A stretch of DNA of 48,055 nucleotides from Candidatus Omnitrophota bacterium. Lineage in GTDB: Bacteria > Omnitrophota > Gorgyraeia > Gygaellales > JBFMBJ01. The notes beneath the pieces are model-generated. The model was not told the DNA's origin. It worked only from the letters and a program-made list of their open reading frames with translations, and searched no databases. Where the stretch lies: NCBI GenBank assembly GCA_040755235.1, contig JBFMBJ010000001.1:1-48055 (forward strand). Reading direction: 5' to 3'. Shown one piece after another: positions 2-37,180 of the stretch; within the stretch, counting starts at the first letter, position 1; each line of letters opens with the position of its first letter. Both the position numbers and the translations under genes were made by a program.

Positions 2-565
2 TATAGGTTTGACGGCAAGAGAATAGTAGTCGGTAGGGTTGAAAACGGCATTCTCAATAAAGGACAATCTATCAAAGCGCTACCCAGTAACCAGAATACA
101 AAAATTAAATCTATAGAGGTGTTTTTGAAAGAAAGCGTCAGAAGCTACCCGGGAGAAAGCATAGGGATTACTACTGAAGACGCCATATTTTTAGAGAGGG
201 GTAATGTAATTTGTGAGCAAGGAAAAGAACCAATTTTGACTGATAATTTCCAGGCCAATGTTTTTTGGATGGCAAAAAACAACTTTGATAAAAACGAGAG
301 AATCACATTAAGGTGCGCGACACAAGAGATTAGTTGTAGGGTAGAAAGGATAGAGGAAAGGATAGATTCTTCATCCCTTGAGGTAATAGAAAAAGATGCA
401 AATGAATTAAGATATCTTGAAGTAGGTAAGGTTATTATAAAGACTAAAAAGCCCATAGCCATAAAGGCTTTTAATGAAATGCAGGAATTGGGCAGGTTTG
501 TATTTGTGCATAATGATAACGTTTGCGCCGGCGGGATTATTACTGGAGTAGAGAGTAGAAAGTAG
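2..565 (+). CDS. cysN: Sulfate adenylyltransferase subunit 1 (CysN-type GTPase), C-terminal part; 5' end lies outside the window
   Basis: The frame is open from nt 2 (YRFDGKRIVVGRVENGILNKGQSIKALPS...). EF-Tu-like domain II/III pattern as in CysN: VFWMAK...LRCATQE...GRFVFV...VCAGGII. The stop TAG 563-565 lies inside the heptad array. Confidence 0.7.
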   Translation, partial: YRFDGKRIVVGRVENGILNKGQSIKALPSNQNTKIKSIEVFLKESVRSYPGESIGITTEDAIFLERGNVICEQGKEPILTDNFQANVFWMAKNNFDKNERITLRCATQEISCRVERIEERIDSSSLEVIEKDANELRYLEVGKVIIKTKKPIAIKAFNEMQELGRFVFVHNDNVCAGGIITGVESRK

Positions 566-576
566 CAAGTAGCGAG
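549..576. repeat. Heptad array TAGAGAG TAGAAAG TAGCAAG TAGCGAG (left flank of 4HB cassette 1)
   Basis: Four consecutive TAGNNAG units. The 7-nt period places TAG in all three + strand frames (549, 556, 563, 570). Confidence 0.9.
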
Positions 577-942
577 ATGGAAAGAAAACCAATAAAAAGC
601 GTTGAAGATTTTGAAGTTTAGCAAAAAGCTGTTGGATTATTCGAAGCTTTTTTAGAAGAAGATTTACCTATATTGAAACAGAATTTTGCTGGGAGGGCTT
701 TAGCGAATAATCAGTTAAGGAGCCTCGATTCTATATGCGCCAATATGGAAGAAGGTTACGAAAGAAAATCAGACAAAGAAATAAAAAATTTCTTTAGAAT
801 ATCTAAGGGCTCAACAGGAGAAGCAAGAGGAAGATATAAAAGATTAAAGAAAATATTACCGGAACAAATAATAAATAAACGCGTAGCTGTTCTAAATGAG
901 ATTAGAGCAATGCTTGAAGCTTTAATTAATAAATGGAAATAA
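577..942 (+). pseudogene. Four-helix-bundle protein (23S rRNA intervening-sequence protein / Avd-like family) with one in-frame TAG
   Basis: ATG 577 gives MERKPIKSVEDFEV, then TAG at 619-621, then QKAVGLFEAF...SICANMEEGYERKS...FFRISKGSTGEA in the same frame. The stop replaces the Tyr of the LEVYQ motif seen in the intact paralogs at 12996 and 14589. The ORF track only shows the TTG-started tail 673-942. Confidence 0.75.
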
Positions 943-944
943 AT

Positions 945-972
945 CTCTCTACTCTCTACTTGCTACTCGCTA
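945..972. repeat. Heptad array CTCTCTA CTCTCTA CTTGCTA CTCGCTA (right flank of 4HB cassette 1)
   Basis: Every unit is the reverse complement of TAGNNAG, so TAG falls in all three - strand frames. It forms a 23/28 imperfect inverted repeat with 549-576. Confidence 0.9.
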
Positions 973-993
973 CTTTTTTAAGAGTTTATACAT

Positions 994-10482: not shown

Positions 10483-12909
10483 ATGACTAAGATTTGTTTC
10501 ATAATTGATAATTTAAAGATAGCGGGTGCGCAGAGGCATCTTTTAAGATTGACCAAAGGATTAACCAACAGGGGGTATTCTCCAGAGGTTATTTCCCTTG
10601 GCATTAATGATGAAAATTTAATTAAAGAGATAAAGGCGCCATTGGCTACATTTAAAATGGATTGTATCTGGAGGATGAGTTTTTGGCTGAATTTTATACA
10701 GTTAATTAAATTTATTTCTAAGCAAAGGCCGGTAATAGTCCATACTTACCTTAATACTTCTAATGTCTTTGGGGTTTTATCTGCTAAAATTGCTAAGGTT
10801 CCCATTATTTTCTCCTCGCGCAGAGATTTAGGCCAATTCCGCTCGAGGTTAATTGGCTTGTTAGAGCGTTTTACTGCACATCTTAGCGATAAAGTTGTTT
10901 GTGTTTCCAATGCTGTTCAAAATCATGTTATTGATTCAGAGCGAATTAGTAGAGAGAAAACGGCTGTTATATATAATGGAGTAGACGTAGATAGTTTGCG
11001 AGTTAACGAGTTGACGAGTTGGCGAGTTAGAAAAGAAATCGGAATAGGTGAAAATGAATTAGCAGTTGGAATGATAGCGACGATGGACAGGGAAGAAAAG
11101 GGGCATAAGGAATTCATTGAAGCAGCGGGTTTGGTTGTAAAAGAAATTCCGAACGTCAAATTTCTGCTTATCGGCGACGGTTTTCTTCGTCAAAAGTTAG
11201 AAAACGCAATACGTGATACCTGCCTTGCCGGCAGGCAGGCGCATGACGCAATACGAGGCAAAGTTTTATTTCTTGGTAAACGTAACGGCATACCAGAATT
11301 ATTATCCACAATGGATGTGTCGGTGAACGCTTCATATTCAGAAGGAATGTCCAATACAATTTTAGAGTCTATGGCAGCTGGAGTGCCAGTAGTAGCTACA
11401 GCAATAGATGGCAATCTCGAAACTGTCAAAAGCTTACAGTTTGATTACAGTGATTTAGATAAAGATTACAGTGATAAAAATTGTGCAACTGGGATACTCG
11501 TGCCGCCAAAAGAGCCACAAGCTATGGCAAAAGCTATTATAAAGATACTTAAAGATAAGGAATTAGCTGTGAAGATGGGTGAAAACGCGAGGCGATTAGT
11601 TTACGAAAAATTCTCTCTTGAAACAATGGTGAATAATTACGCTAAACTTTATCAAGATTTATCCGCGCCAATCCGCGTCCAAAACAATCCGCGCCAATCC
11701 GCGTCCACAGTGGGTTATATCGTTTCTCTTTTTCCCTGTTGGTCAGAAACCTTTATCTTAAATGAAATAATAGAGTTAAAGAGAAAAGGTATTGAAGTGA
11801 CTATATTCTCTATAAGAAAAGATTTGGAAGCATTTATTCAAGAGAAGTCAAAACTGCTTATAAAAAATACAATATATCCAGAAAAGCCAGGTGTATTTAG
11901 GTCATTTGTATTTTGGGCTGTAAGAAAACCAGTGACATTGCTTTCAATTTTCTGGTTGGTTGTCAGTAAAAGATATTCAAGCTCAAAAGTTCTACTTAAG
12001 AACATCTGGTGTATTTTTGTCGGTTGCTACTTTGCTACTATTGTAAAAAAAGAGAATATCAAAAACCTCCATGCACATTTTGCAACCTACCCAACTTTAG
12101 TAGCTTTGGTCATATCAAGATTGACTAAGATTAGTTATACTTTTACCAATCATGCTCATGACATATTCTTAGAAAAAGCTCTTTTAAAAGAAAAATCCAG
12201 AGATGCAAAAGCCATAGTTGCTATCTCAAATTATAATAAGCAATATCTGGATAATATTTGTCAAAATGGAGTTATAGATAAGACGCACGTCATTCATTGC
12301 GGCTTAGATTTAGCTGAATTTGTTAATTTAAACGTCAAGCATAAAGATAATACGATTTTGAGTATCGGCAGATTAACCAAAATGAAGGGTTTTGAATATC
12401 TTATTAAAGCTTGCAATCAAATTAAAAATCGCCTGCCTGTCCAATGCCGCATAATTGGCGATGGTCCTTTGAATGATGAATTGGAAAGGTTAATTATTAA
12501 TTTAGGAGTAAGGAGTAGCGTAAAATTAAAAGGGGTAACGGACAACAGTGAGATTAAGCAATTATTACAGGAAAGTGCTGTATTTATCATGTCCAGCGTC
12601 TGGGATGAGCAGGATGGCCAAGATGGCATCCCGATCGTATTAATGGAGGCAATGGCAGCAGGCGTGCCGGTGATAGGTTCAAATATTTCAGGCATACCCG
12701 AATTGATCCAGGATGGTCAGACAGGGCTGTTGGTTGAGCCAGGCAATGTTGTAGATTTGGCAAAGAAGATTGAGCTTTTGTTGAACGATAAAGATTTGCA
12801 GGCTCGCTTAGCTAAAGCAGGCAGGCGTAAGGTTGAAGAGGAATTTGATATTCATAAGAGTGTAGAGAAGCTAATTGAGGTATTTAACTTATCGAGCTGT
12901 CATACATAG
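10483..12909 (+). CDS. Two GT4 glycosyltransferase modules in one ORF (tandem fusion through a repeat linker)
   Basis: Module 1 has SEGMSNTILESMAAGVPVVATAIDGNLE. Module 2 starts like a complete WcaL-type GT (VGYIVSLFPCWSETFILNEIIELKRKGIEV) and has DGIPIVLMEAMAAGVPVIGSNISGIPELIQDGQTGLLV. The junction is the 21-nt direct repeat at 11661-11707. An in-frame GTG at 11710 could be an internal start. Confidence 0.8.
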   Translation: MTKICFIIDNLKIAGAQRHLLRLTKGLTNRGYSPEVISLGINDENLIKEIKAPLATFKMDCIWRMSFWLNFIQLIKFISKQRPVIVHTYLNTSNVFGVLSAKIAKVPIIFSSRRDLGQFRSRLIGLLERFTAHLSDKVVCVSNAVQNHVIDSERISREKTAVIYNGVDVDSLRVNELTSWRVRKEIGIGENELAVGMIATMDREEKGHKEFIEAAGLVVKEIPNVKFLLIGDGFLRQKLENAIRDTCLAGRQAHDAIRGKVLFLGKRNGIPELLSTMDVSVNASYSEGMSNTILESMAAGVPVVATAIDGNLETVKSLQFDYSDLDKDYSDKNCATGILVPPKEPQAMAKAIIKILKDKELAVKMGENARRLVYEKFSLETMVNNYAKLYQDLSAPIRVQNNPRQSASTVGYIVSLFPCWSETFILNEIIELKRKGIEVTIFSIRKDLEAFIQEKSKLLIKNTIYPEKPGVFRSFVFWAVRKPVTLLSIFWLVVSKRYSSSKVLLKNIWCIFVGCYFATIVKKENIKNLHAHFATYPTLVALVISRLTKISYTFTNHAHDIFLEKALLKEKSRDAKAIVAISNYNKQYLDNICQNGVIDKTHVIHCGLDLAEFVNLNVKHKDNTILSIGRLTKMKGFEYLIKACNQIKNRLPVQCRIIGDGPLNDELERLIINLGVRSSVKLKGVTDNSEIKQLLQESAVFIMSSVWDEQDGQDGIPIVLMEAMAAGVPVIGSNISGIPELIQDGQTGLLVEPGNVVDLAKKIELLLNDKDLQARLAKAGRRKVEEEFDIHKSVEKLIEVFNLSSCHT
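10993..11030. repeat. In-frame octamer array (NNCGAGTT x4), copy a
   Basis: agtttgcgagttaacgagttgacgagttggcgagttag encodes SLRVNELTSWRVR. It is 35/38 identical to 13945-13982 in a paralogous GT4, whereas the flanking coding DNA is much less similar. Confidence 0.85.
11204..11255. repeat. In-frame ACGCAATACG pair (42-nt spacing) around a GC-rich hairpin
   Basis: acgcaatacg occurs at 11204-11213 and 11246-11255. The central cctgcc-ttgcc-ggcagg lies at 11219-11235. The segment encodes AIRDTCLAGRQAHDAIRG in a GT4 linker that is normally shorter. Confidence 0.8.
11443..11475. repeat. In-frame GATTACAGTGAT direct repeat, 21-nt period
   Basis: Perfect 12-mers at 11443-11454 and 11464-11475 encode DYSD twice, inside the GT4 E...G loop. 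The reverse complement atcactgtaatc occurs at 18878-18889. Confidence 0.85.
11661..11707. repeat. Perfect 21-nt direct repeat (atccgcgccaatccgcgtcca x2, 5-nt spacer) at the GT4-GT4 junction
   Basis: Units at 11661-11681 and 11687-11707. Each unit is itself two ATCCGCGNCA decamers. The region is translated as SAPIRVQNNPRQSAS. Confidence 0.9.
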
Positions 12910-12991
12910 TCATAGGTAGTCATAAAATGGTCATACAATTGTAAAAGATACTATAAGTATATTGTAATAAATAGTCATACATTGTAAAAAG
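12899..12991. repeat. GTCATA array (left flank of 4HB cassette 2)
   Basis: GTCATA at 12899, 12909, 12919, 12930 (10-11 nt phasing) and 12974. gtcatacaattgtaaaag and gtcatacattgtaaaaag are near duplicates. Stops occur in all three + frames, and the stop of the upstream GT (12907) lies inside the array. Confidence 0.85.
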
Positions 12992-12995
12992 GAGA

Positions 12996-13385
12996 ATGGA
13001 ATTGGCGGGAGATATAAGAGATTTTGATGATTTGGAAGTATATCAGCTGGCTTTAGAATTGGCAGATTGGATATATGATTTAACAAGCAATTTTCCTAGT
13101 GAAGAAAGGTTCAATGTTACCTCGCAGATAAGGGATGCTGCAACTTCAATTGGCGCAAATATAGCCGAAGGCTATGGTCGGTTTCACTATAAAGAAAACA
13201 TTCAATTTTGTAGACAAGCAAGAGGCTCTTTATCTGAGACAAAGCACTTTATGATTTTTAGCAATAAACGCAAGTATATTTCTGATGATATTTACAAAGA
13301 ATTTTTACAAAAATACAAGCAATTACAAATAAAAATTAACAATTATATTAATTCAATTGGTAAGAAGAATAGTGACGATGTATGA
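12996..13385 (+). CDS. Four-helix-bundle protein (23S rRNA IVS protein / Avd-like family)
   Basis: DFDDLEVYQLALEL..., RDAATSIGANIAEGYGRFHYKENIQFCRQARGSLSETKH. SD aaaggag lies 5 nt upstream. Confidence 0.85.
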   Translation: MELAGDIRDFDDLEVYQLALELADWIYDLTSNFPSEERFNVTSQIRDAATSIGANIAEGYGRFHYKENIQFCRQARGSLSETKHFMIFSNKRKYISDDIYKEFLQKYKQLQIKINNYINSIGKKNSDDV

Positions 13386-13417
13386 CAACATTTGACAATG
13401 GTATGACAATATATGAC
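13381..13417. repeat. TATGAC array (right flank of 4HB cassette 2; inverse of the GTCATA array)
   Basis: TATGAC at 13381, 13402 and 13412, plus TTTGAC at 13391 (10-11 nt phasing). The 4HB stop TGA 13383-13385 lies in the first unit. Confidence 0.85.
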
Positions 13418-14548
13418 GATTCACGTGCTTCGGCGCGAAAAATTAACATCCTGCACGTGATTTGGTCCTTAGAAAAAGGCGGCGCGGAAAGATTCTTGGT
13501 TTTGCTGGTTAAAAATTTTGACCAAAGCCGTTTCAATTCCATTGTTTGTTGCCTTAATTGGAAAGGCGAATGGGCAAGCGAACTTGAGGAAAAAGGAATC
13601 AAGGTTATTGCCTTAAATAAAAAAGGTAAGTTCGACATCTGTGTAATCTATAGAATAATCTGTGTAATCAGACAATATAAAATTGATATTGTAAATACTC
13701 ATCTTTGGGCAGCAGATTGCTTAGGAAGGGTTGCGGCTATTTTTGGGGGAGTGCCCATAATTATAAGCACAGTCCAAAATGTAGATATCTGGAAGAAGTT
13801 TTGGCATAAAATCATAGATAAGATGTTGGCGAACCGAACAACCAAATTTATTGCAGTTTCAAAAGCAGTTAAGGAGTTTTTGATTAATACAGAAAAGATT
13901 CCTGAAGAAAAAATTGAGATAATACCGAATGCGATTGATGCAGAAAGTTTGCGAGTTAACGAGTTGGCGGGTTTGCGAGTTAGAGAAGATTTAGGGATTA
14001 AAAACGAAGAGATAGTGCTGACTGTAATTGGAAGATTGGTTGAACAAAAGGGCCATAAATATTTGTTTGAAGCCTTGAGTATGCTGGATGGCAGGTATAG
14101 AGTGAAATTACTGGTGGTTGGTGATGGGCCGCTTAGAGAAAGTTTACAGTTTAAAGTTAACAGTTTACAGTTAGAGAATAAAATTCAATTCTTAGGGCAG
14201 AGAAGAGACATGGCAGAAATATTTAATGCGAGTGATGGTGTGATTTTGCCTTCGCTTTATGAGGGGTTGCCTGTAAGCATTTTAGAGGCGATGGCTGTTG
14301 GTAAGCCTGTAATCGCAACAGATGTTGGCGGCACTTGCGAACTTGTTAAAGATGGAGAAACTGGATTTTTGGCACAAGCAAAAAACAGCAAAAGCTTAGC
14401 ATCTAATATAGAAAAACTTTTAACTTCACCAGATAAAGGAAAAAAAATGGGAGAGAGAGGCAAGGAATTGGTTAATAATGCCTTTTCTATACAGGCTATA
14501 GTTAAAAAAACAGCAGATTTATATCTCTCACTTCTCGGTAACGGTTAG
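13382..14548 (+). CDS. Family 4 glycosyltransferase
   Basis: INILHVIWSLEKGGAE..., YEGLPVSILEAMAVGKPVIATDVGGTCELVKDGETGFL. The first ~15 codons (MTTFDNGMTIYDD) are a translation of the TATGAC array, so the true start is probably downstream (ATG 13403 or later). Confidence 0.8.
   Translation: MTTFDNGMTIYDDSRASARKINILHVIWSLEKGGAERFLVLLVKNFDQSRFNSIVCCLNWKGEWASELEEKGIKVIALNKKGKFDICVIYRIICVIRQYKIDIVNTHLWAADCLGRVAAIFGGVPIIISTVQNVDIWKKFWHKIIDKMLANRTTKFIAVSKAVKEFLINTEKIPEEKIEIIPNAIDAESLRVNELAGLRVREDLGIKNEEIVLTVIGRLVEQKGHKYLFEALSMLDGRYRVKLLVVGDGPLRESLQFKVNSLQLENKIQFLGQRRDMAEIFNASDGVILPSLYEGLPVSILEAMAVGKPVIATDVGGTCELVKDGETGFLAQAKNSKSLASNIEKLLTSPDKGKKMGERGKELVNNAFSIQAIVKKTADLYLSLLGNG
13637..13669. repeat. 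In-frame ATCTGTGTAATC direct repeat, 21-nt period
   Basis: Perfect 12-mers at 13637-13648 and 13658-13669 encode ICVIYRIICVI. Confidence 0.85.
13945..13982. repeat. In-frame octamer array (NNCGAGTT-type), copy b
   Basis: agtttgcgagttaacgagttggcgggtttgcgagttag encodes SLRVNELAGLRVR. It is 35/38 identical to 10993-11030. Confidence 0.85.
14141..14172. repeat. In-frame AGTTTACAGTT direct repeat, 21-nt period
   Basis: Units at 14141-14151 and 14162-14172 encode SLQFKVNSLQL. They share the TTACAG core with 11433-11475. Confidence 0.8.
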
Positions 14549-14581
14549 GGTAACGAAGCCAGTATCGGTAAGGGTAATGGC
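14535..14581. repeat. Flank A of 4HB cassette 3 (GGTAACG/GGTAAGG-type low-complexity array)
   Basis: tcggtaacggttagggtaacgaagccagtatcggtaagggtaatggc. It contains the GT stop TAG 14546-14548 and stops in all + frames. An inverted copy lies at 18716-18763. Confidence 0.85.
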
Positions 14582-14588
14582 AAAGTAA

Positions 14589-14984
14589 ATGGAAAATAAA
14601 AAACGAATAACAAGTTTTAAAGATTTAGAAGTATACCAGAATAGCTACAGAGCTATGCTAAGTGTAATGAAAGAGATTGTTCCGAAATTACCCGAGAGAG
14701 AAAAATACGACTTGGTAGATCAATTGAGTAGAGCCTGTAAGTCAATACCCAGATTGATAGCAGAAGGTTATGCTAAGCGGCACCAAAAGGCAGGTTTCCA
14801 GAAATATATTGATGATGCGATGAGCGAGTCTAATGAAATGGTTGTTAGTTTAAGCGAGTCGCGAGATATATACTTTAATTATATAGATGTGAAACAGTGC
14901 GATGAATTAATTGATATTTATGATAAGACAGGCAGGCAGCTTTATAAATTAGCTGAAAGTTGGACAAATTTTAAAAGACGATAG
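14589..14984 (+). CDS. Four-helix-bundle protein (23S rRNA IVS protein / Avd-like family)
   Basis: SFKDLEVYQNSYRA..., LSRACKSIPRLIAEGYAKRHQKAGFQKYIDDAMSESNE. Confidence 0.85.
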   Translation: MENKKRITSFKDLEVYQNSYRAMLSVMKEIVPKLPEREKYDLVDQLSRACKSIPRLIAEGYAKRHQKAGFQKYIDDAMSESNEMVVSLSESRDIYFNYIDVKQCDELIDIYDKTGRQLYKLAESWTNFKRR

Positions 14985-15040
14985 ACGTAACCCAAGGACG
15001 AAACGGGCATCCTAACCTTAACCTAAAAACGTTGCCATAA
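14983..15040. repeat. Flank B of 4HB cassette 3
   Basis: agacgtaacccaaggacgaaacgggcatcctaaccttaacctaaaaacgttgccataa. Its reverse complement matches 18579-18636 at 54/58 positions. Confidence 0.9.
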
Positions 15041-15057
15041 CGTATAGTGGTATTCAC

Positions 15058-16293: not shown

Positions 16294-16311
16294 CTTATTT
16301 GTCTGAATTTG

Positions 16312-16326
16312 TCCCGCCCTTTTGGC
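16312..16326. repeat. Left arm of a perfect 15-bp inverted repeat around the GIY-YIG gene
   Basis: tcccgcccttttggc is the exact reverse complement of 16601-16615. Confidence 0.95.
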
Positions 16327-16337
16327 TGGAGGTAGGT

Positions 16338-16595
16338 ATGCATTATATTTATTTGTTAAAAAGCGAGAAAGACAACTATATTTATATTGGCAATACCAAT
16401 GATTTAGAAAGAAGATTGGTTGAGCATAATAGCGCTAACAATACAGCTACTAAGAAGCATAGACCTTTTAAATTAGTTTATTACGAAGCTTATTTAGATA
16501 AGAGGGATGCTTTAGATAGAGAAAATAAATTAAAACATCACGGAAGCGTTATTGGACATCTGAAGAAACGATTAAAATATAGTTTATCTTGTTAA
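16338..16595 (+). CDS. Small stand-alone GIY-YIG (URI-domain) nuclease family protein
   Basis: HYIYLLKSEKDNYIYIGNTNDLERRLVEHNS. SD ggagg at 16328-16332. The ORF-track start (TTG 16299) only adds a translation of the left IR arm. Confidence 0.85.
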   Translation: MHYIYLLKSEKDNYIYIGNTNDLERRLVEHNSANNTATKKHRPFKLVYYEAYLDKRDALDRENKLKHHGSVIGHLKKRLKYSLSC

Positions 16596-16600
16596 ATTTC

Positions 16601-16615
16601 GCCAAAAGGGCGGGA
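16601..16615. repeat. Right arm of the perfect 15-bp inverted repeat around the GIY-YIG gene
   Basis: gccaaaagggcggga, 5 nt after the TAA stop. Confidence 0.95.
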
Positions 16616-16628
16616 TTAATTCGTAGAC

Positions 16629-16685
16629 GCTCCGACATAGCGTCGGAGCTACAATTTACGAAAGCAATAGCGAATCGTAAATTGT
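16629..16685 (+). other. Two adjacent perfect hairpins (8-bp stem with 5-nt loop; 11-bp stem with 13-nt loop)
   Basis: gctccgac-atagc-gtcggagc (16629-16649) and acaatttacga-N13-tcgtaaattgt (16651-16685). There is no U-tract, so they are not classical terminators. Confidence 0.6.
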
Positions 16686-18543: not shown

Positions 18544-18578
18544 GGCGTCACAGCCGCCTGTCGTGTACTACTTCACAA

Positions 18579-18636
18579 TTATGGCAACGTTTTTAGGTTA
18601 CGGTTAGGATGCCAGTTTCGTGGTTGGGTTACGTCT
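18579..18636. repeat. Inverted copy of flank B
   Basis: ttatggcaacgtttttaggttacggttaggatgccagtttcgtggttgggttacgtct is the reverse complement of 14983-15040 at 54/58 positions. Confidence 0.9.
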
Positions 18637-18715
18637 TTCGTATTGAGAAAAATTATTCTAACTGCATTAATTTCAAGAATGTTGATTGCTTTTAAGCTTT
18701 ATATTTTTTCACGTA
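18637..18715 (-). pseudogene. Decayed remnant of a four-helix-bundle gene (about 20 N-terminal codons with a stop, the rest deleted)
   Basis: The minus strand reads gtgaaaaaatataaagcttaaaagcaatcaacattcttgaaattaatgcag. This aligns with the 5' end of 14589 (atggaaaataaaaaacgaataacaagttttaaagatttagaagtataccag). It sits between the inverted copies of flanks A and B. Confidence 0.55.
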
Positions 18716-18763
18716 GCCGTTACCTTAAACCGATACCGGCTTCGTTACCCTTGCCGTTACCGA
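18716..18763. repeat. Inverted copy of flank A
   Basis: gccgttaccttaaaccgataccggcttcgttacccttgccgttaccga is the reverse complement of 14535-14581, with a few mismatches and a 1-nt indel. Confidence 0.85.
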
Positions 18764-18891
18764 AATACTGAAGAACTACACTTCGGCAGGCAAGTTCCGC
18801 CCTTGATTGCAGAGATTAATAAAAACAGATTACTACGATTAAAACTAGAGAATGTAATCTCTGGAATCTTATGAAAAATCACTGTAATCAT

Positions 18892-19598: not shown

Positions 19599-19646
19599 GT
19601 CATAAGTAGTCATAAGGTAGTCATACAATGGTCATAAATTGTCATA
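19599..19646. repeat. GTCATA array (left flank of the toxin-antitoxin cassette)
   Basis: GTCATA at 19599, 19609, 19620, 19631 and 19641 (10-11 nt phasing). It is visibly alignable with 12909-12945. Confidence 0.9.
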
Positions 19647-19711
19647 CGATTGTATGAGGCGAGCGTTACATAAATTCAGACTCGATATCTTAAAAATCCT
19701 TACTTTCGTCC

Positions 19712-19740
19712 TTGACGATTTCCTTACTTTGTGCTATACT
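19712..19740 (+). promoter_or_regulatory. Sigma-70-type promoter of the AbrB/toxin pair
   Basis: TTGACG (19712-19717), 17-nt spacer, TATACT (19735-19740). tccttacttt is directly repeated at 19697 and 19721 and is a possible operator. Confidence 0.6.
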
Positions 19741-19761
19741 TGTTACTGGAGGTGAACAAAG

Positions 19762-20022
19762 ATGACAATTACAATGACAGCAAAGAATCAAATAACCATA
19801 CCTAAGAAGATCACAAATGCTTTGGGCTTAGGGAAGGGGTCTATGTTCGAGGTAGAGGTCTCTAGAGATGGGATAGAGCTTATTCCTCTGGAGACAAAAG
19901 AAAGGCAGTTCACAGATGAGGAATACGTGAAATTAGAGACCCTTGCAGCCAAAGAAAAGGGGAAAGAAAAACATGTAACAAAAAGGTTCATCGATAATTT
20001 AAAAAAGGGAAAATCTAATTAA
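19762..20022 (+). CDS. AbrB/MazE/SpoVT-family antitoxin
   Basis: MTAKNQITIPKKITNALGLGKGSMFEVEV (swapped-hairpin motif). It overlaps the downstream gene by 1 nt (TAATG). Confidence 0.75.
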   Translation: MTITMTAKNQITIPKKITNALGLGKGSMFEVEVSRDGIELIPLETKERQFTDEEYVKLETLAAKEKGKEKHVTKRFIDNLKKGKSN

Positions 20023-20330
20023 TGTCTTTACGCCTTTATTACAGGCCTTCTTTTAAAAGAAGCATCAAGCGTTTAGGATATGAACAGAAGAAAACAGTAG
20101 GACTGATAATTGAATCTTTAGCTGTTTATTATTCTCGTGAGTGTAATCTGCTAGAGGCACAAAAGATAGCACCACGATTTTTTTATAAACAACTAAGAAA
20201 GCCCTATTATGAAGCCGGTATCGAAGGAACCATCCGAGTGATTATAAGACGAGAGGGTGAAAATTGTATTGTAGTATTAGCCGGGAATCATGACCAAATA
20301 AAACAATTTCTGGCCAGCGTACAGTGTTGA
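20022..20330 (+). CDS. Putative type II toxin (RelE/ParE-like small basic protein)
   Basis: Size, position after the AbrB antitoxin and translational coupling support the call. YRPSFKRSIKRLGYEQKKTVGLIIESL resembles RelE/ParE N-termini. The family assignment is tentative. Confidence 0.5.
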   Translation: MSLRLYYRPSFKRSIKRLGYEQKKTVGLIIESLAVYYSRECNLLEAQKIAPRFFYKQLRKPYYEAGIEGTIRVIIRREGENCIVVLAGNHDQIKQFLASVQC

Positions 20331-20373
20331 AGAAGTACTGCCAAAGGATAAAATAACCCCTCAGAAATCTCCC

Positions 20374-20412
20374 CATGACAATCTTGTGACAACAATATGA
20401 CAACCTTATGAC
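20374..20412. repeat. (C/T)ATGAC array (right flank of the toxin-antitoxin cassette)
   Basis: catgaca at 20374, tgtgac at 20385, tatgac at 20396 and 20407 (11-nt phasing). It is alignable with 13381-13417. Confidence 0.85.
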
Positions 20413-21537: not shown

Positions 21538-21571
21538 GAACGAGGGACGAGAGGCGATGGACGAAAGGCGG
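21526..21571. repeat. ACGAG-type octamer-like array straddling the GT2 stop
   Basis: aaacgagttaggaacgagggacgagaggcgatggacgaaaggcgg. It shares the aacgagtt unit with 10993-11030 and 13945-13982. Confidence 0.7.
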
Positions 21572-21760
21572 AAAACAAAATGCCTGACTATCTTACTAAA
21601 ATAGAGTATACTCCAATTTAGTAATACCAATTTGGAGTTTAATCTGGATAAAAAATCTGAAAAGAATACTTGATATAAAGCTTCCCCGGCGACAATCAGC
21701 GTTTTTATAGGGAGATAGAAAGAGAATCGACATCATATAAACTTTAATGGCAAAATTTTC

Positions 21761-21794
21761 TTGACAAAATAATCCCTTATGGTAATTTATTACC
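21761..21794 (+). promoter_or_regulatory. Possible sigma-70 promoter with an overlapping palindrome upstream of the MNT/HEPN pair
   Basis: TTGACA (21761-21766), 16-nt spacer, TAATTT. GGTAAT-TT-ATTACC palindrome at 21781-21794. Confidence 0.35.
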
Positions 21795-21811
21795 ATAAAC
21801 ATGGTGAAAAC

Positions 21812-22357
21812 ATGATATCTTTACGTTCAAAAGTGGCAATAAAATTACTGGATTATTATTTCCTTAATCCTGATGCTAAACATTATATCAATGAATTGGC
21901 GAGGACTTTAGACCTTGATCCTAAAAATACCGAAACTAAGCTTAAGGAATTCGAAAAAAAAGGCATTTTTAAAAGTGAATTCCGCGGTAAAGAAAGGTAT
22001 TTTTTCTTAGCAAAGGATAGCCCCGTTTTAGAGCATTACCGCCAGATTTTCCTGAAGACTTATGGTATAGAGAAGAGGCTTAAAGATACGCTACGAGGTA
22101 TTAAGGGACTTAAGGAGGCATATCTATTTGGCTCATACGCAACCAATAAGATGGATTTTTCAAGCGATATTGATATCTTGGCCATCGGTTCGCACTCTGT
22201 TTTGGAATTACAGAGGATGATTGTTAAGTTACAGAAGGATACAGACAGAGAAGTCAATGTAATGAATTTAAGCCTCAAGGAATTTGAGGTAAAGAAAAAA
22301 AAGAAAGACCCTTTTATAACCAATGTCTTTAAAACCAAGACTATAAGGATCGTATGA
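21812..22357 (+). CDS. Nucleotidyltransferase (MNT-type) with an N-terminal winged-helix domain
   Basis: HYINELARTL... wHTH-like N-terminus. AYLFGSYATNKMDFSSDIDILAIG is the G[SG]-x(n)-DxD NTase motif. The start was moved to ATG 21812. Confidence 0.75.
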   Translation: MISLRSKVAIKLLDYYFLNPDAKHYINELARTLDLDPKNTETKLKEFEKKGIFKSEFRGKERYFFLAKDSPVLEHYRQIFLKTYGIEKRLKDTLRGIKGLKEAYLFGSYATNKMDFSSDIDILAIGSHSVLELQRMIVKLQKDTDREVNVMNLSLKEFEVKKKKKDPFITNVFKTKTIRIV

Positions 22358-22751
22358 TTAATTTTGAAAGTCAATACTTTCAAAAATTGGCATTTCATTT
22401 AAAGAAAAACAAATTGAACAATTCTTAAAGTCTGCCTTACATGACATTAAGATTGCCGAAACATCTGATATTCCGGATGTTATTTTTAAATTCAGTTATG
22501 ATGCTTTGTTAAAATTAGGCATTGCGTTAATTGCAAAGAAGGGTTATAGAGTGAGAAGCGCAACAGGCCATCATATTAAGATATTAGAGAAACTTAGTCA
22601 GATACTTAAAGAAGAAGATATTATTGTTCTTGGCAATAAGATGCGTCAGGAACGCAATATTAATCTTTATGATGGCGGCTTTGTAGTAGGGGAAAAAGAC
22701 ATCCGGGAGTATCTAATTTTTGTAAAAAGTATTTTCAAAAAAGGTAATTGA
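22354..22751 (+). CDS. HEPN-domain protein, reading frame broken near the 5' end (-1 shift at an A5 run)
   Basis: ATG 22354 overlaps the MNT stop (ATGA) and reads MINFESQYFQK. The HEPN-like sequence IGISFKEKQIEQFLKSALHDIKIAE...GHHIKILEKL continues in the -1 frame from 22386. That frame has no ATG/GTG/TTG before 22506. Confidence 0.55.
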
Positions 22752-33039: not shown

Positions 33040-34053
33040 ATGCAAAATAATCCTAAGCCACGGAAGTCAGTGCCGGCTTTAAAAGATTTAATTAACGTTG
33101 AGGCCTGGCAGGATATTCAGGATAACTTTTCTTTAGTAACCGGAATTGATATTCGATTAATAGACTCAAAAGGCAATCCTCTTATCCGCCGTAGTAATCA
33201 TTCCTCCGCATTATGTTCTGATTATTCCCCAATAGCACAAACAGTAAAAGAGAAGGTCTGTGTAGATTGCCTGCCTACGTTCTTAGGAGGCAACGGCGTA
33301 GTAGACCGTAATTTGAGTTTTTCCTGTATTCCTGGTTTAGACAATTTTATCGTTCCTTTAAGCATAGAGAATGAGGTGCTTGGCTATATCCTAATGGGGC
33401 CTGTTATTTTAGTTATGCGCAAGACCAAAGAACAATATTCTCAGATTGCGGAATCACTAAATGTTGATTTAGAAGAACTCTGGAGTGCTATTTTAGAGTT
33501 AAAAGTGATTTCTTTTCATGGCGCGCAATCAATGCTGGAATTGGTTAAAGATGTAGGTGAATACATTGTAAATTTGGCTTATAGAGATTACATGAAAGAA
33601 GAAGGGGTTAGTTTTAAGCTTAGCACCGTAAAATTACATAAGATATTAGAACTATTGTTAGATGTGGCATTTGAAATAACCGGCGCAGATATTGGCTCAG
33701 TGATGTTAGTTGATAAAAAATCTGATGAACTTTCTATAAAAGCTAGCCGAGGAATTTCAGATGATATCGTTGCGAGGACCCGGGTTAAGCTGGGTAGCAG
33801 GATTTCCGGTTTAGCAGCAAGGGAAGGGGAGGCATTTTTAATCGATAAAGCCTTAAAAGATAACCGAATTAGTCGCTATCTTGAGAGGCCGTCTTTAAAT
33901 TCTTCGATGGTCGTTCCGCTTAAATTAAAAGACACAGTAGTGGGAGTTATGAATTTGGCAATTCTTTCTACCTCACCTAACAAGTTCAGCCAGGACGGCT
34001 TAGAATTGATGCGTAAACTTGCGGACTTGGCAACTGTAGCAATTCCCACCTAA
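33040..34053 (+). CDS. PocR-type sensory domain plus GAF domain protein (no output domain)
   Basis: WQDIQDNFSLVTGIDIRLIDSKGNPL is PocR-like. The C-terminal part is GAF-like (ADIGSVMLVD...SIKASRGI...MVVPLKLKDTVVGVMNL). Confidence 0.6.
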   Translation: MQNNPKPRKSVPALKDLINVEAWQDIQDNFSLVTGIDIRLIDSKGNPLIRRSNHSSALCSDYSPIAQTVKEKVCVDCLPTFLGGNGVVDRNLSFSCIPGLDNFIVPLSIENEVLGYILMGPVILVMRKTKEQYSQIAESLNVDLEELWSAILELKVISFHGAQSMLELVKDVGEYIVNLAYRDYMKEEGVSFKLSTVKLHKILELLLDVAFEITGADIGSVMLVDKKSDELSIKASRGISDDIVARTRVKLGSRISGLAAREGEAFLIDKALKDNRISRYLERPSLNSSMVVPLKLKDTVVGVMNLAILSTSPNKFSQDGLELMRKLADLATVAIPT

Positions 34054-35429
34054 TCTATTTTCCTAAAGCTTGAGGCGGGTATTTTTAATTCTTCGCGGTA
34101 TTTTGCAATTGTACGCCTCGAGATGTCTAATTTTCTTTCCTCATTTAAAACCTTAGTAATAGCCTGATCGCTTAACGGTTTCTTCCTATTTTCCTGCTGG
34201 ATTAAATCTTTTATAAGGTGCTTAATGGCAGTTGAGGATATTGTCTCGCCATTTTTATCATGAATGTGGCTTGCAAAGAAATCCTTTAATGCCACAATGC
34301 CGCAAGGAATCTTAGCGTATTTATTCATTATTGCCCGACAGACGGTTGTTTCGTGAACATTCAGTTTGGCTGCTATATCTTTAAAAGTTAAGGGTTTCAA
34401 ACAGGAAAGGTCAGTTTTAATTGCCTCATTTTGAATTTCCACAATTGATTCGACAATATTTCTAAGAGTTGAATGTCTTCTTGAAATGGCACGCAGTAAT
34501 TCTATGGCGCTACGTAATTTCAGCGTTAAAAATTCTCTTGTTTTCTGGTCCAGATCTGGATTCTTTAGCATGTTGCGATAGGTTTTGTTGATACGCAAAG
34601 TCGGCATATATTCGTTGTTTATGGTTATCTTTAATTCATCAGCCTCAGGTTCAATTATAATGTCCGGAATAATATATTGCGGCTGTTCTGCGCTATAATT
34701 TCTGCCTGGCTTTGGGTCTAATTGGAGTATCTTTTTAACTAAAGGTTCAACAGTTTCTAAAGGTATACCTAAAGACTTGGCAATAACATTAAATCTTTTC
34801 TTTGCAACGTCTTCCAAGTGGTTTTCTATAATTTTTTCTAATAGTGGGTCAGGCTCTTTTGACATATTTATCTGTATAAGAAGGCATTCAGAGATTGACC
34901 TTGCGCCAACACCATGCGGCTCAAATTGTTGTATTAGATAAAGCGTATTTTGTACCTTTTCAACTGCTAAATTTAAACTACTGGCTATTTCTTCTAACTT
35001 GGCTTTCAAGTAGCCATTTTCGTCAATATTGCCTATTATTTCCTGGCCAACCTTAAATTCTTCTTCCGAAGTGCTGAATATGCCTAATTGTCTTAAGAGG
35101 ATCTCTTGTAAGTTCATTTCTTTGCTGATAAGGGTAGCCTGCAGGTCAGTATTGATAAGACTGTCTTTTGCAACATATTTGGATTGGCCATAATAATAGC
35201 CATCATCAGCATCAAAAGTAGAGAGGGGGTCTGTAGTTTTTTCTACTCGAGGGTTAACTTTCACTATTATTGTTTCCTGAGGCCGGGTTTCTTCTAATGT
35301 AGGATTGTTTTCAAGTTCCTGGCTAACCATATCCTTAAGTTCAGGTAAAGGTAAGGTAAGCACTTTTAATGACTGCTGCATCTGGGCAGCCATAACTCTT
35401 TTAAGTTCTAATTTCTGTCTTAACTCCAT
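34050..35429 (-). CDS. rpoN: RNA polymerase sigma-54 factor
   Basis: MELRQKLELKRVMAAQMQQSLKVLTLPLPELKDMVSQELENNPTLEE region I. HTH and RpoN box ISRRTIAKYRE at the C-terminus. Confidence 0.95.
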   Translation of the reverse strand: MELRQKLELKRVMAAQMQQSLKVLTLPLPELKDMVSQELENNPTLEETRPQETIIVKVNPRVEKTTDPLSTFDADDGYYYGQSKYVAKDSLINTDLQATLISKEMNLQEILLRQLGIFSTSEEEFKVGQEIIGNIDENGYLKAKLEEIASSLNLAVEKVQNTLYLIQQFEPHGVGARSISECLLIQINMSKEPDPLLEKIIENHLEDVAKKRFNVIAKSLGIPLETVEPLVKKILQLDPKPGRNYSAEQPQYIIPDIIIEPEADELKITINNEYMPTLRINKTYRNMLKNPDLDQKTREFLTLKLRSAIELLRAISRRHSTLRNIVESIVEIQNEAIKTDLSCLKPLTFKDIAAKLNVHETTVCRAIMNKYAKIPCGIVALKDFFASHIHDKNGETISSTAIKHLIKDLIQQENRKKPLSDQAITKVLNEERKLDISRRTIAKYREELKIPASSFRKID

Positions 35430-35493
35430 AAGTGATTAAATTATAACACAAAAACTTAGTCCTGCAACGAAATTAAAATTAATGCATTTCTTA

Positions 35494-35522
35494 TTGACAG
35501 AATTTCTGTTTAAATATAAAAT
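35494..35522 (+). promoter_or_regulatory. Sigma-70-type promoter candidate
   Basis: TTGACA (35494-35499), 17-nt spacer, TAAAAT (35517-35522). Confidence 0.5.
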
Positions 35523-35551
35523 ATAATTATGAGTAAGCACTCAAAATAAAT

Positions 35552-35926
35552 ACGGGGTATTTTTTAAAGACGAAACCGCGCGGCAGGCCAAAGAAACAAA
35601 AAATTGTTCATATAAAGCCAAAAATCACTCAATTTAGCCCCAGGGGCAAGCCAGGAAGGCCTGATGAAGTAGAGCTTGAAATTGAGGAATTTGAGGCCCT
35701 AAGATTGGCTGATTTTCAAGGCAAACCCCAAATTGAGGCAGCCAAATCAATGGCTATAAGCCAACAGACTTTTAGCCGCATCCTTAAAAAGGCAAGAAAA
35801 AAGACAGCGGAGGGACTTTTGCTTGGAAAAAGGATTAGCATACGAAGTTCTAGTGTTAAACCTGTCAAAGAGGTTCAAGAACACGTCAGATTGTCCAGTC
35901 CTGTAATTCATTTATCCAATCCTTAA
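35552..35926 (+). CDS. DUF134 (UPF0251) small DNA-binding protein; start codon unresolved
   Basis: The open frame reads KTKPRGRPKKQKIVHIKPKITQFSPRGKPGRPDEVELEIEEFEALRLADFQGKPQIEAAKSMAISQQTFSRILKKARKK, matching the DUF134 pattern from its N-terminus. No ATG/GTG/TTG precedes 35705. Confidence 0.6.
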   Translation, partial: TGYFLKTKPRGRPKKQKIVHIKPKITQFSPRGKPGRPDEVELEIEEFEALRLADFQGKPQIEAAKSMAISQQTFSRILKKARKKTAEGLLLGKRISIRSSSVKPVKEVQEHVRLSSPVIHLSNP

Positions 35927-36175
35927 TTTATCCAAATAATCACGCTCAGATTGATTAATCCATACTTATAAACTGTATTTTGGCCCATATTTGATTATTG
36001 CGCAACTTCCTATAATATATATTATGTTAACTTCGATATATGTAAGAATATTGGCATAACATATTGGAATATAATGAGTTGAAGAAAAATAAAAATAACC
36101 TGTGGACAACTCATTTTAAACTTACCTGGACTTACTTTGGTTTTTACTTAATTACTGTAGGGTTGTTACGCGGAT

Positions 36176-37180
36176 TTAAGGAGTTATAGAAGGTTTAATA
36201 TTTACGCCTGCAAAACGGTCTAATCCATGCTCATCCTGTGTCCAGCCGTTTTTAAGGCCATATAAAGCCATTTCTGCCTTGGCCACCTCATATTCTTCCC
36301 TTGTGATTTTACGTGCCAATATGGGGTCATTTTCGGCTTTAAAACAGGGAAAATACTGGCTCATCAGAGAAATATGCACTTCTTTAGACACTTCTTTGGA
36401 TAGGAATTCCATAATTTCTGAGGTTCCGGAGAGGTTGTTTGGCAGGACTAAATGTCTGATAATAAGCCCTCGCTGGATTATGCCTTTTTCATCAATTTGG
36501 GCATTGCCAACCTGCCTGAACATTTCTTTTATGGCAAGGCGGTTATAAAATGGGTATTTTGGCGCACCTGAGTATTTCAGAGCGGTTTTCTCATCACTAT
36601 AGCGCATATCAGGCAAATATATGTCAATAACGCCATCAAATAACACCAGGGTTTCTATAGAATCATAACCTCCGGTATTATATACAAGCGGTATGTTTAA
36701 ACCCATAGGTATTGCAAGGTAAATTGCCTTTAAAATCTGGCTAGCTACATGGGTTGGGCTGACAAAATTAATATTATGACAGCCCATATGTTGGAGTTCC
36801 AACATTATCTTAGCCAGGTCTTCGGGCTCGGTTTCTGAGCCGCCTCCCCCCTGACTAAATTCATAATTTTGGCAGTATATACAACTCATATTGCAATTAG
36901 CAAAGAATATTGTTCCAGAGCCGCGAGTCCCTGAAATTGGCGGCTCTTCGCCATGGTGATTTAGCCAACTATAGACCTTAGGCAGGGCCCCAGTTTTGCA
37001 TACCCCCCTCTTATCTTCTAGTCTATTTACGTGGCAATTATGCGGGCAAAGTGTGCAATTTTCAAGGATCTTGTAGGCATTCTTTATGCGTTTTTCAAAT
37101 TCTTGTTTACTATTTTGGTAAAGATTAATGTATAATAATTTTTCCATTTTCGACATTAAAACTAAGTTTTCTACCATCAA
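36176..37180 (-). CDS. Radical SAM protein, PflX-type (pyruvate formate-lyase activase-like, COG1313)
   Basis: CTLCPHNCHVNRLEDKRGVCK N-terminal Cys motif plus CNMSCIYC (CxxxCxxC). The true start may be Met9 or Met12 (37156 or 37147). Confidence 0.75.
   Translation of the reverse strand: MMVENLVLMSKMEKLLYINLYQNSKQEFEKRIKNAYKILENCTLCPHNCHVNRLEDKRGVCKTGALPKVYSWLNHHGEEPPISGTRGSGTIFFANCNMSCIYCQNYEFSQGGGGSETEPEDLAKIMLELQHMGCHNINFVSPTHVASQILKAIYLAIPMGLNIPLVYNTGGYDSIETLVLFDGVIDIYLPDMRYSDEKTALKYSGAPKYPFYNRLAIKEMFRQVGNAQIDEKGIIQRGLIIRHLVLPNNLSGTSEIMEFLSKEVSKEVHISLMSQYFPCFKAENDPILARKITREEYEVAKAEMALYGLKNGWTQDEHGLDRFAGVNIKPSITP

Follow-up and report, generated by a model that had tools for sequence, protein, structure and literature searches.

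A toxin-antitoxin module between the arms of a GTCATA foldback element in an Omnitrophota exopolysaccharide locus: a probable, apparently singular capture

The DNA analysed here, referred to as the window, comprises the whole of the 48,055-nt contig JBFMBJ010000001.1 (positions 1 to 48,055) from a Candidatus Omnitrophota bacterium. It carries an exosortase/PEP-CTERM exopolysaccharide (EPS) locus. In the gap between a polysaccharide deacetylase gene and a family 2 glycosyltransferase (GT2) gene of this locus is a segment, termed cassette B, in which a toxin-antitoxin (TA) module stands between two arrays of the hexamer GTCATA, direct on the left and inverted on the right. The parts of cassette B are:

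19599..19658, + strand: left arm, five GTCATA units with a period of 10-11 bp, apex CGATTG and first inverted unit GTATGA (19652-19657)
19659..19689, + strand: 5′ spacer between arm and TA unit; begins GCGAGCG
19690..19761, + strand: TA promoter/operator region; -35 TTGACG (19712-19717), TG and -10 TATACT (19735-19740), Shine-Dalgarno GGAGGT (19748-19753)
19762..20022, + strand: antitoxin, 86 aa, SpoVT-AbrB/MazE DNA-binding domain; PF04014 at 2.3e-8 and TIGR01439 (AbrB family) at 1.1e-11
20022..20330, + strand: toxin, 102 aa, probably of the RelE/ParE superfamily; its ATG overlaps the TAA stop of the antitoxin (TAATG)
20331..20373, + strand: 3′ spacer from toxin stop to right arm; TA-module homology ends at the stop codon
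20374..20419, + strand: right arm, CATGAC, TGTGAC, TATGAC and TATGAC; its end is 2 nt short of the GT2 start codon (ATG)

The units of the left arm start at 19599, 19609, 19620, 19631 and 19641, that is, with a spacing of 10/11/11/10, and the right arm keeps an 11-bp phase, with CATGAC at 20374, TGTGAC at 20385 and TATGAC at 20396 and 20407. Five phased units on the left (19599-19646) and inverted units on the right (20374-20412) had been reported in the initial annotation of this DNA, and their positions and phase are as described there. All three reading frames are closed by TAA or TAG within the left arm. The 5′ spacer shows no homology to the upstream flanks of TA homologs; the GCGAGCG with which it begins is found also after TATGAC units in other elements of the GTCATA family.

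The same type of arms flanks a gene for a four-helix-bundle (4HB) protein elsewhere in the window, in a segment termed cassette A:

12898..12991, + strand: left arm of cassette A with four GTCATA units and apex CAATTGTA; a segment of unit plus apex is present twice (12925-12947 / 12969-12991)
12996..13385, + strand: 4HB-A gene, PF05635 at 4e-35 and TIGR02436 at 1.2e-32; the usual cargo of GTCA-type arms
13373..13420, + strand: right arm of cassette A, TATGAC/TTTGAC units; contains in-frame ATG codons of the downstream glycosyltransferase (GT) gene

Arms of the two cassettes were compared by formal local alignment scored against dinucleotide shuffles. The left arms align over 45 columns with 40 of 43 aligned positions identical, and their score of 61 (shuffles 17.9 ± 2.9; z 14.7) was matched by none of 1000 shuffles; the right arms align with z 9.3. 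Within cassette B, the left arm compared with the reverse complement of the right arm gives z 10.7, and the same comparison within cassette A gives z 5.8. The alignments within a cassette are weaker than that of the two left arms, and left and right identity has been kept between A and B. Thus the arms of A and B, which had been proposed to be alignable, are homologous beyond the sharing of one hexamer. The arms of B are about equally close to those of cassette A and of two loci from other sequences, L393 and L017, and B is therefore a member of an Omnitrophota subfamily and not a fresh copy of A. The duplicated left-arm layout of cassette A is also present in L393, an orthologous cassette.

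GTCATA hexamers number 36 in the window, as compared to 17.6 ± 3.8 in shuffled sequence. Against an expectation of 0.21 there are six phased double units, all of them around 12899-13417 and 19599-20412, i.e., at the two cassettes. The arrays are therefore not a generic spacer of the EPS operon, a possibility which the initial annotation had named as decisive against its own interpretation. Folded as RNA, the arms of B give -41.2 kcal/mol (z -6.7) and those of A -29.7 kcal/mol (z -4.25). An interpretation of the arms as promoters, from TTGTCA/TACAAT-like hexamers, was rejected, since these are wrongly spaced and the promoter scan lists only weak 9/12 matches in the arms.

The cargo of cassette B is predicted to be a type II TA unit of about 640 bp with its own promoter and with a toxin translationally coupled to the antitoxin, as judged from the overlap of stop and start codons. 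The near-consensus promoter, TTGACG-17-TATACT with TG ahead of the second hexamer, is at 19712-19740, and two TCCTTACTTT direct repeats (19697-19706, 19721-19730) lie on either side of the -35 hexamer. These repeats are likely TA operators. The promoter/operator layout is kept in every homologous module read, namely in L241, L251, L261, L262 and L263. The PF04014 match of the antitoxin is above the gathering score. Promoter, AbrB-type antitoxin and coupled toxin had all been called in the initial annotation, and these assignments stand.

The toxin has no match to Pfam or NCBIfam models. A profile of the toxin family compared with the PDB has the RelE3 chain 3bpq_B at E 0.18, a sub-significant value. 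An AlphaFold (AF2) model built from 18 sequences has a mean confidence (pLDDT) of 64, and nearly all top Foldseek matches of this model are RelE, YoeB, HigB, YafQ or ParE structures (best E 0.024, probability 0.90, TM 0.40-0.48). The toxin is thus probably RelE/ParE-like by its modelled fold, and is a candidate member of the superfamily. Look-ups for exact proteins returned no match to the toxin or GT2 protein of the window, and a tblastn search with relaxed settings detected no significant remnant of a 4HB gene inside cassette B.

Homologs of the toxin number 354, with identities of 68-88% among the 120 listed; those with a named source are from Omnitrophota or related candidate groups. The antitoxin-toxin pair is conserved in loci L241-L264. 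In six independent contexts that were read, conservation takes in the whole block of promoter, both TCCTTACTTT repeats, antitoxin and toxin, and homology to the module of the window extends from about ten bases ahead of the first repeat to the toxin stop codon. No GTCATA arrays are found around the TA homologs in these six contexts. The module is located there next to other TA pairs, to Fic, AbiEii and AAA_14/DUF4143 genes and, in one case, to a tyrosine-recombinase fragment. In L251 (2300-3303) and L263 (1320-7257), both from other Omnitrophota contigs, the module is part of same-strand runs of TA and defence genes (PIN, RelB/YafQ, HigB-HTH, Fic, AbiEii, AAA_14/DUF4143), and in L251 it is directly 3′ of the recombinase fragment, which is of 145 aa.

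Important is the context in L262, where the TA module is situated between a DUF134 gene and a radical-SAM gene, beside rpoN. The window has the same rpoN/DUF134/radical-SAM neighbourhood at 34050-37180, without a TA module. Alignment of window 35842-35999 with L262 2504-3677 shows syntenic flanks with 86-88% identity on both sides, and L262 has a close homolog of the TA module and a helix-turn-helix (HTH) gene between them. Thus the module displays a presence/absence polymorphism at the sigma-54/radical-SAM locus; the window is "empty" at this site and has its TA module in the EPS locus. Block conservation, contexts devoid of arms and polymorphism at a site together show that the TA module is a conserved autonomous unit that is variably present and whose usual habitat is not a GTCATA cassette.

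Arrays of the GTCATA type were then sought in genomes and metagenomes. A scan for three phased GTCATA units, with one genome per species, found many unrelated tandem repeats and one coherent family with units of the form GTCATAC-RRT-N. Among its members are two empty hairpins of about 90 bp in the Omnitrophota metagenome-assembled genome MAG234 (L011 and L017), in which a left array, a CAATTG apex and an inverted array abut, and the apex and first inverted unit in the left arm of cassette B resemble the centre of these hairpins. Empty hairpins are present also in Bacteroidia and metagenomes (L077, L269, L278, L309, L334, L338), and in a Bacteroidales contig (L070) arrays of eight and seven units are found around a 4HB gene. 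With a more specific pattern, 120 further loci were obtained from metagenomes, all of the GTCATAC-RRT-N family. The number of units in an array ranges from 3 to 24. Hairpins with a conserved loop of about 30 nt (CAGCATTTGTAATGCAGTTAGAAAA) form a sub-family that recurs in many metagenome contigs (L283, L289, L299, L315, L337, L366, L370, L371, L374, L375, L379).

Of the approximately 128 unique arrays, the majority are either solo or in the form of empty hairpins, with ordinary genes as neighbours. The only gene that recurs on the inner side of the arrays is a PF05635-type 4HB gene (7 unique loci vs 1 on the outer side), and no second TA module inside GTCATA-type arms is present in this sample. 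In 360 array-selected loci there is no homolog of the TA module, nor of two other inserts of the window described below, a GIY-YIG gene and an MNT gene. At least 120 loci (L121-L240) came from a scan of viral contigs for the array pattern, and tblastn found no homolog of the TA, GIY-YIG or MNT proteins of the window in them. The initial annotation had taken different cargos in the same flanks as cargo swapping, the hallmark of a cassette or insertion-site system. Homologous arms with unrelated cargos are upheld; a freely swappable cargo is an overstatement given that 4HB alone recurs, and cargo swapping fails as a general rule. One candidate for a second TA module in arms, a Phd-PIN module in L291 and L354, was rejected. 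It has no partner arm, and its two GTCATACAATTG units overlap its own -35/-10, an operator-like coincidence. The promoter region (L354 140-200, identical to L291) reads TTGACAATTGTCATACAATTGTCATACAATTG, with the two units as an operator-like palindrome, and is a look-alike and not a member of the family.

A search by DNA pattern is subject to ascertainment bias, and relatives of the 4HB genes were therefore sought by protein. Homologs of 4HB-A are found in several phyla at 62-77% identity. GTCA-type arms are present in all three protein-found relatives whose DNA was read (66-91% identity; Omnitrophota and Planctomycetota). These are L393, which is 91% identical and syntenic with the window; L385 (76%), between a Wzy and a GT4 gene and with GTCATA/GTCAAA units; and L394 of Planctomycetota (66%), between purC and clpB and with GTCAAG/TTGAC units. 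The 4HB genes of two array-found loci, L284 and L382, are also close to 4HB-A (phmmer 1e-66 and 7e-61); one is before an epimerase gene and the other after a GspE-like gene. Both share with cassette A the order arm, CAATTGT(A), Shine-Dalgarno sequence, open reading frame (ORF), arm. An incidental 4HB gene in an unrelated locus, L014, has GTCAC/GTGAC arms. Overall, the inverted-repeat score of the flanks is above the 95th percentile of 580 control ORFs in 12 of 15 unique 4HB genes.

Two more 4HB cassettes, with arms of other families, and a gene-less copy are found in the window:

14540..15043, + strand: second cassette, 4HB-2 (14589-14984) between GGTAAC/GGTTAG-type inverted arms (14540-14588, 14985-15043)
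18567..18765, - strand: gene-less short GGTAAC-type copy of about 200 bp, inverted relative to 14540-15043; both arms homologous, interior of about 95 bp, AT-rich
546..975, + strand: third cassette, 4HB gene (577-945) between inverted AGTAG-type arrays of 7-8-bp units (546-576, 946-975)

Thus three 4HB arm families are present in one 20-kb stretch of the contig, and for two of them there are further sites at which the arms accompany the same 4HB lineage. Relatives of 4HB-2 have the same GGTNAC arms between guaB and dnaE (L395) and between mlaF and mlaD (L405). Arms of the GGTAAC family are 78-92% identical between copies vs 53-58% at third codon positions, and a stem of about 30 pairs is common to four copies, with two pairs changed on both sides; the gene-less copy is one of the rows of this alignment. 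The arms of this family are therefore under selection and travel with the gene, so that selection is established for at least one arm family. As far as sequence comparison tells, each 4HB lineage examined has its own arm family, with GTCA-type arms cognate to the 4HB-A lineage. The loaded cassettes of the window are all co-oriented with the operon, and protein-found 4HB genes are co-oriented with both neighbours; this fits a dependence of the cassettes on read-through transcription.

The 4HB gene of the third cassette has an in-frame TAG at codon 15 and matches PF05635 at 1.9e-13 with the stop replaced. The gene-less copy at 18567-18765 resembles a derivative of the kind known as miniature inverted repeat transposable elements (MITEs). 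There is overlap between arms and coding regions: the stop codons of the upstream genes are inside the left arms of three cassettes (12907-12909, TAG of a GT gene; 14546-14548; 563-565), the 4HB-A stop (13383-13385) is the TGA of the first TATGAC unit, and candidate ATG starts of the GT gene downstream of cassette A (13382/13403) are within TATGAC units.

A further gene in the window is centred between inverted repeats of another kind:

16305..16622, + strand: small GIY-YIG nuclease gene (ATG 16338 to 16595) with 22-nt inverted repeats at 16305-16326 and 16601-16622, 91% complementary

These repeats have a perfect 15-bp core, TCCCGCCCTTTTGGC / GCCAAAAGGGCGGGA, and a GC-rich hairpin lies 3′ of them at 16626-16650. 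A search of the fetched loci for the GGTAAC-arm and GIY-YIG-arm motifs gave no additional copies. The EPS operon has a second TA-like insert, at 21540-22750. It consists of a winged-HTH nucleotidyltransferase of the MNT type (21779-22357) and a HEPN-like ORF (about 22400-22750) whose start is possibly frameshifted. Both are served by a TTGACA promoter of the insert near 21763; on the left side only, at 21540-21575, there is a periodic array of GGACGA(R)AGGCG, and no partner arm is seen. An interspersed repeat family (…AGATTACGGTGATTAAA…AATCTCTGGAATCTTAT…) is found at window 18790-18872 and in L017 (5490-5560, 6400-6495), so that two copies are within 1 kb in Omnitrophota MAG234. No Rfam family, rRNA included, is detected in the window.

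Taken together, GTCATA elements are most likely a 4HB-specific family with the TA case as the exception, and not an integron-like or general cassette system. The TA module in the arms of cassette B is real but apparently a singular event, and we lean, with modest confidence, to a one-off capture of an autonomous TA module by a 4HB-type foldback element. The standard element would consist of two inverted arms, in each of which a short unit is repeated in phase a few times (in the present case GTCATA at intervals of 10-11 bp), and of a Shine-Dalgarno sequence and a 4HB ORF of about 125 codons that fills the space from arm to arm. Such elements would occupy the tiny gaps between co-oriented operon genes and would exist also as empty hairpins of about 90 bp and as solo arrays. 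The left side of B retains the apex and the first inverted unit (GTCATACGATTGTATGA, 19641-19657). The TA unit comes next, separated from this left part by about 31 bp and from the remainder of the right arm by about 43 bp, both of unrelated sequence. This arrangement would result if the TA unit had entered the right half of an empty GTCATA hairpin immediately beyond its apex. Alternatively, the TA unit may have replaced a 4HB gene, of which B has no detectable remnant. In the operon transcript, the arms may pair as a long imperfect stem, which RNase III could cut as in the intervening sequences (IVS) of rRNA that encode S23p proteins, making the insert tolerable in an operon; the TA genes would be expressed and autoregulated from their own promoter.

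A broader hypothesis, which we put forward tentatively and regard as less probable than the capture itself, is that PF05635 4HB genes and their periodic cognate arms constitute widespread, hitherto undescribed mobile foldback cassettes of about 0.5 kb that invade operon gaps across Omnitrophota, Planctomycetota and Bacteroidota, with the S23p IVS as a special case. The 4HB protein would then recognise the arms on DNA or RNA, the arms alone would suffice for maintenance or mobilisation in trans, and cassette B, 6 kb from the 4HB-A cassette, would be a non-autonomous copy with foreign cargo.

Several points weigh against the favoured interpretation, a capture by a 4HB-type foldback element with a processed stem. 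The stem of the sense strand surpasses that of the antisense strand in only 8 of 12 cassettes, a non-significant excess, and in some hairpins only the hexamers pair while the spacers are open, a pattern that equally suits sites for a DNA-binding protein. Bacteroidota have long solo arrays of up to 24 units without partner arm or cargo. For none of the GTCATA or GGTAAC elements could one site be compared in empty and filled form, the deacetylase/GT2 junction included; therefore the order of events (hairpin or cassette first) and the exact ends of the elements are not shown. Ten junctions were read for target-site duplications, including those of cassettes A and B of the window (W-A, W-B) and of L393, L385, L284, L382, L017 and L011, and none was seen, with the limit that the ends are not fixed by an empty site and a short duplication may have been missed. 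We know of no enzyme that mobilises these elements. It should also be noted that the fold assignment of the toxin leans on a model with pLDDT 64 and on sub-significant matches.

The cassettes might instead belong to a system indifferent to cargo, with a recombinase or transposase gene elsewhere in the genome whose product binds the phased GTCATA units of either end and mobilises the DNA between them. Empty hairpins would then be MITE-like deletion derivatives, and the 4HB protein might be a specificity factor, making B a non-autonomous element served in trans by A. Helically phased hexamers that are direct in one arm and inverted in the other are like multi-site transposon ends, and the pairing of several hairpins through hexamers only, the existence of gene-less short copies, the same cassette type at unrelated sites in different phyla and the presence in one contig of A and B arms with 40/43 identical positions are all in keeping with such a system. 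However, the contig lacks a recombinase in the approximately 45 ORFs scanned, no target-site duplication is visible at the ten junctions, and every other loaded element carries a 4HB gene. Moreover, three arm families in 20 kb, each with its own 4HB, would need either three enzymes or a 125-aa helical-bundle protein as the sole determinant of specificity, for which no catalytic motif or precedent is known. We therefore consider a cargo-agnostic system rather unlikely. Still less probable in our estimate is that the arrays are host intergenic repeats, minisatellite-like or similar to repetitive extragenic palindromic (REP) sequences, which are fragile or recombinogenic and in which selfish genes (4HB, TA, GIY-YIG) land independently. 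Most sampled arrays are indeed solo or empty beside ordinary genes, their range of 3 to 24 units is what slippage would give, the TA unit is bordered on either side by a spacer of its own and breaks the hairpin just after the apex, and the GIY-YIG gene is likewise at the centre of a palindrome. Yet the arm family follows the 4HB lineage across hosts and sites, the 4HB ORF spans from arm to arm with stop codons inside arm units, conservation of the arms far exceeds that of synonymous sites in the gene between them, and the 4HB gene is on the inner side of arrays 7 times vs 1 on the outer.

Repeated DNA motifs are bound by AbrB/MazE antitoxins, and a phased arrangement is suited to cooperative binding; hence the GTCATA arrays could conceivably be operators of the TA module itself. 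But the same arms flank a 4HB gene without an antitoxin, and all TA homologs read lack GTCATA arrays and keep the two TCCTTACTTT repeats around the -35. On this comparison of homologs the operator reading was rejected, and we assign it a negligible probability.

For the favoured reading, a TA capture by a 4HB-type element, the element family is of more value than the TA case, which would be a mere curiosity if it is an accidental one-off. Thousands of "four helix bundle protein" genes are annotated without context, and no description of PF05635, TIGR02436 or S23p genes as repeat-flanked cassettes outside rRNA was found in the literature. That 4HB genes travel with lineage-specific arms inside ordinary operons, leaving empty hairpins, makes the puzzle of the IVS testable, and the copy with the TA module serves as a natural experiment, which suggests that other DNA can be accommodated between the arms. 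The family also explains conspicuous phased intergenic repeats in Omnitrophota and Bacteroidota genomes, and the EPS/exosortase operon is seen to tolerate six small selfish inserts.

Among known systems, integron cassettes are similar in being small, mostly promoterless genes (TA cassettes being the promoter-bearing exception) that are associated with imperfect palindromes and co-oriented. The cassettes described here differ in that there is no IntI, attI or R''/L''/L'/R' box, they are single and scattered in operons and not in arrays, and half-palindromes are on both sides of the gene, in contrast to the one attC 3′ of the gene in integrons. The initial annotation saw no integrase, transposase or attC-like site in the window, and this is confirmed: a Pfam scan of the approximately 45 ORFs of the window detected no recombinase domain, including that of tyrosine recombinases, and there is no GTTRRRY core. 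An attC reading of the arms was also rejected, as the arms are split around the cargo and consist of GTCATA/TATGAC units without RYYYAAC ... GTTRRRY boxes. Transposons and MITEs share terminal inverted repeats and copies at different genomic sites, and differ from the present elements, which have no visible target duplication and no transposase in the contig.

Correia repeats of Neisseria (also termed NEMIS) and REP/BIME sequences are likewise short, multicopy palindromic intergenic repeats that are co-transcribed with flanking genes. Being MITEs, Correia/NEMIS elements insert within transcription units, where RNase III cleaves them. However, Correia elements carry no cargo, have defined terminal inverted repeats and duplicate a TA target, REPs are linked to RAYT transposases, and neither has phased hexamer arrays or a cognate gene. 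The foldback (FB) elements of Drosophila have long inverted repeats made of short subrepeats in variable number, with or without a central segment, and most FB copies are non-coding. They are eukaryotic and much larger, and the resemblance is in architecture only, with no homology implied. As for the cargo, type II TA modules of the AbrB/MazE + RelE/ParE kind have an upstream SpoVT-AbrB antitoxin, an overlapping small toxin and their own promoter with repeats, are found in TA islands and show presence/absence polymorphism. The module of cassette B differs in that its toxin is outside Pfam/NCBIfam models, with a weakly supported RelE-like fold, and in its unusual place between foldback arms in an EPS operon.

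The closest known analogue is the S23p-encoding IVS of 23S rRNA, a type of IVS present in Leptospira and Coxiella (Ralph and McClelland 1993; PMC4990558). In 23S rRNA, an IVS has a PF05635 (S23p) ORF between terminal inverted repeats, the stem is cut by RNase III, and the mobility is unexplained (PMC4990558). PF05635 and GIY-YIG ORFs are found as well in rRNA insertions of bacteria of the candidate phyla radiation (CPR). Like the IVS, the present elements are of about 0.45-0.75 kb with stem-forming terminal inverted repeats around a PF05635 ORF, are in sense orientation in a transcribed unit, and are sporadic, horizontally spread and without a known mobility enzyme. Unlike the IVS, which are located in rRNA helices, they lie between protein genes of operons, their arms are built periodically from 6-11-bp units, and excision by RNase III would apply to them by analogy only. 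The PF05635 ORF of the IVS thus has its counterpart in cassettes A, 2 and 3, and in cassette B its place is held by the TA module.

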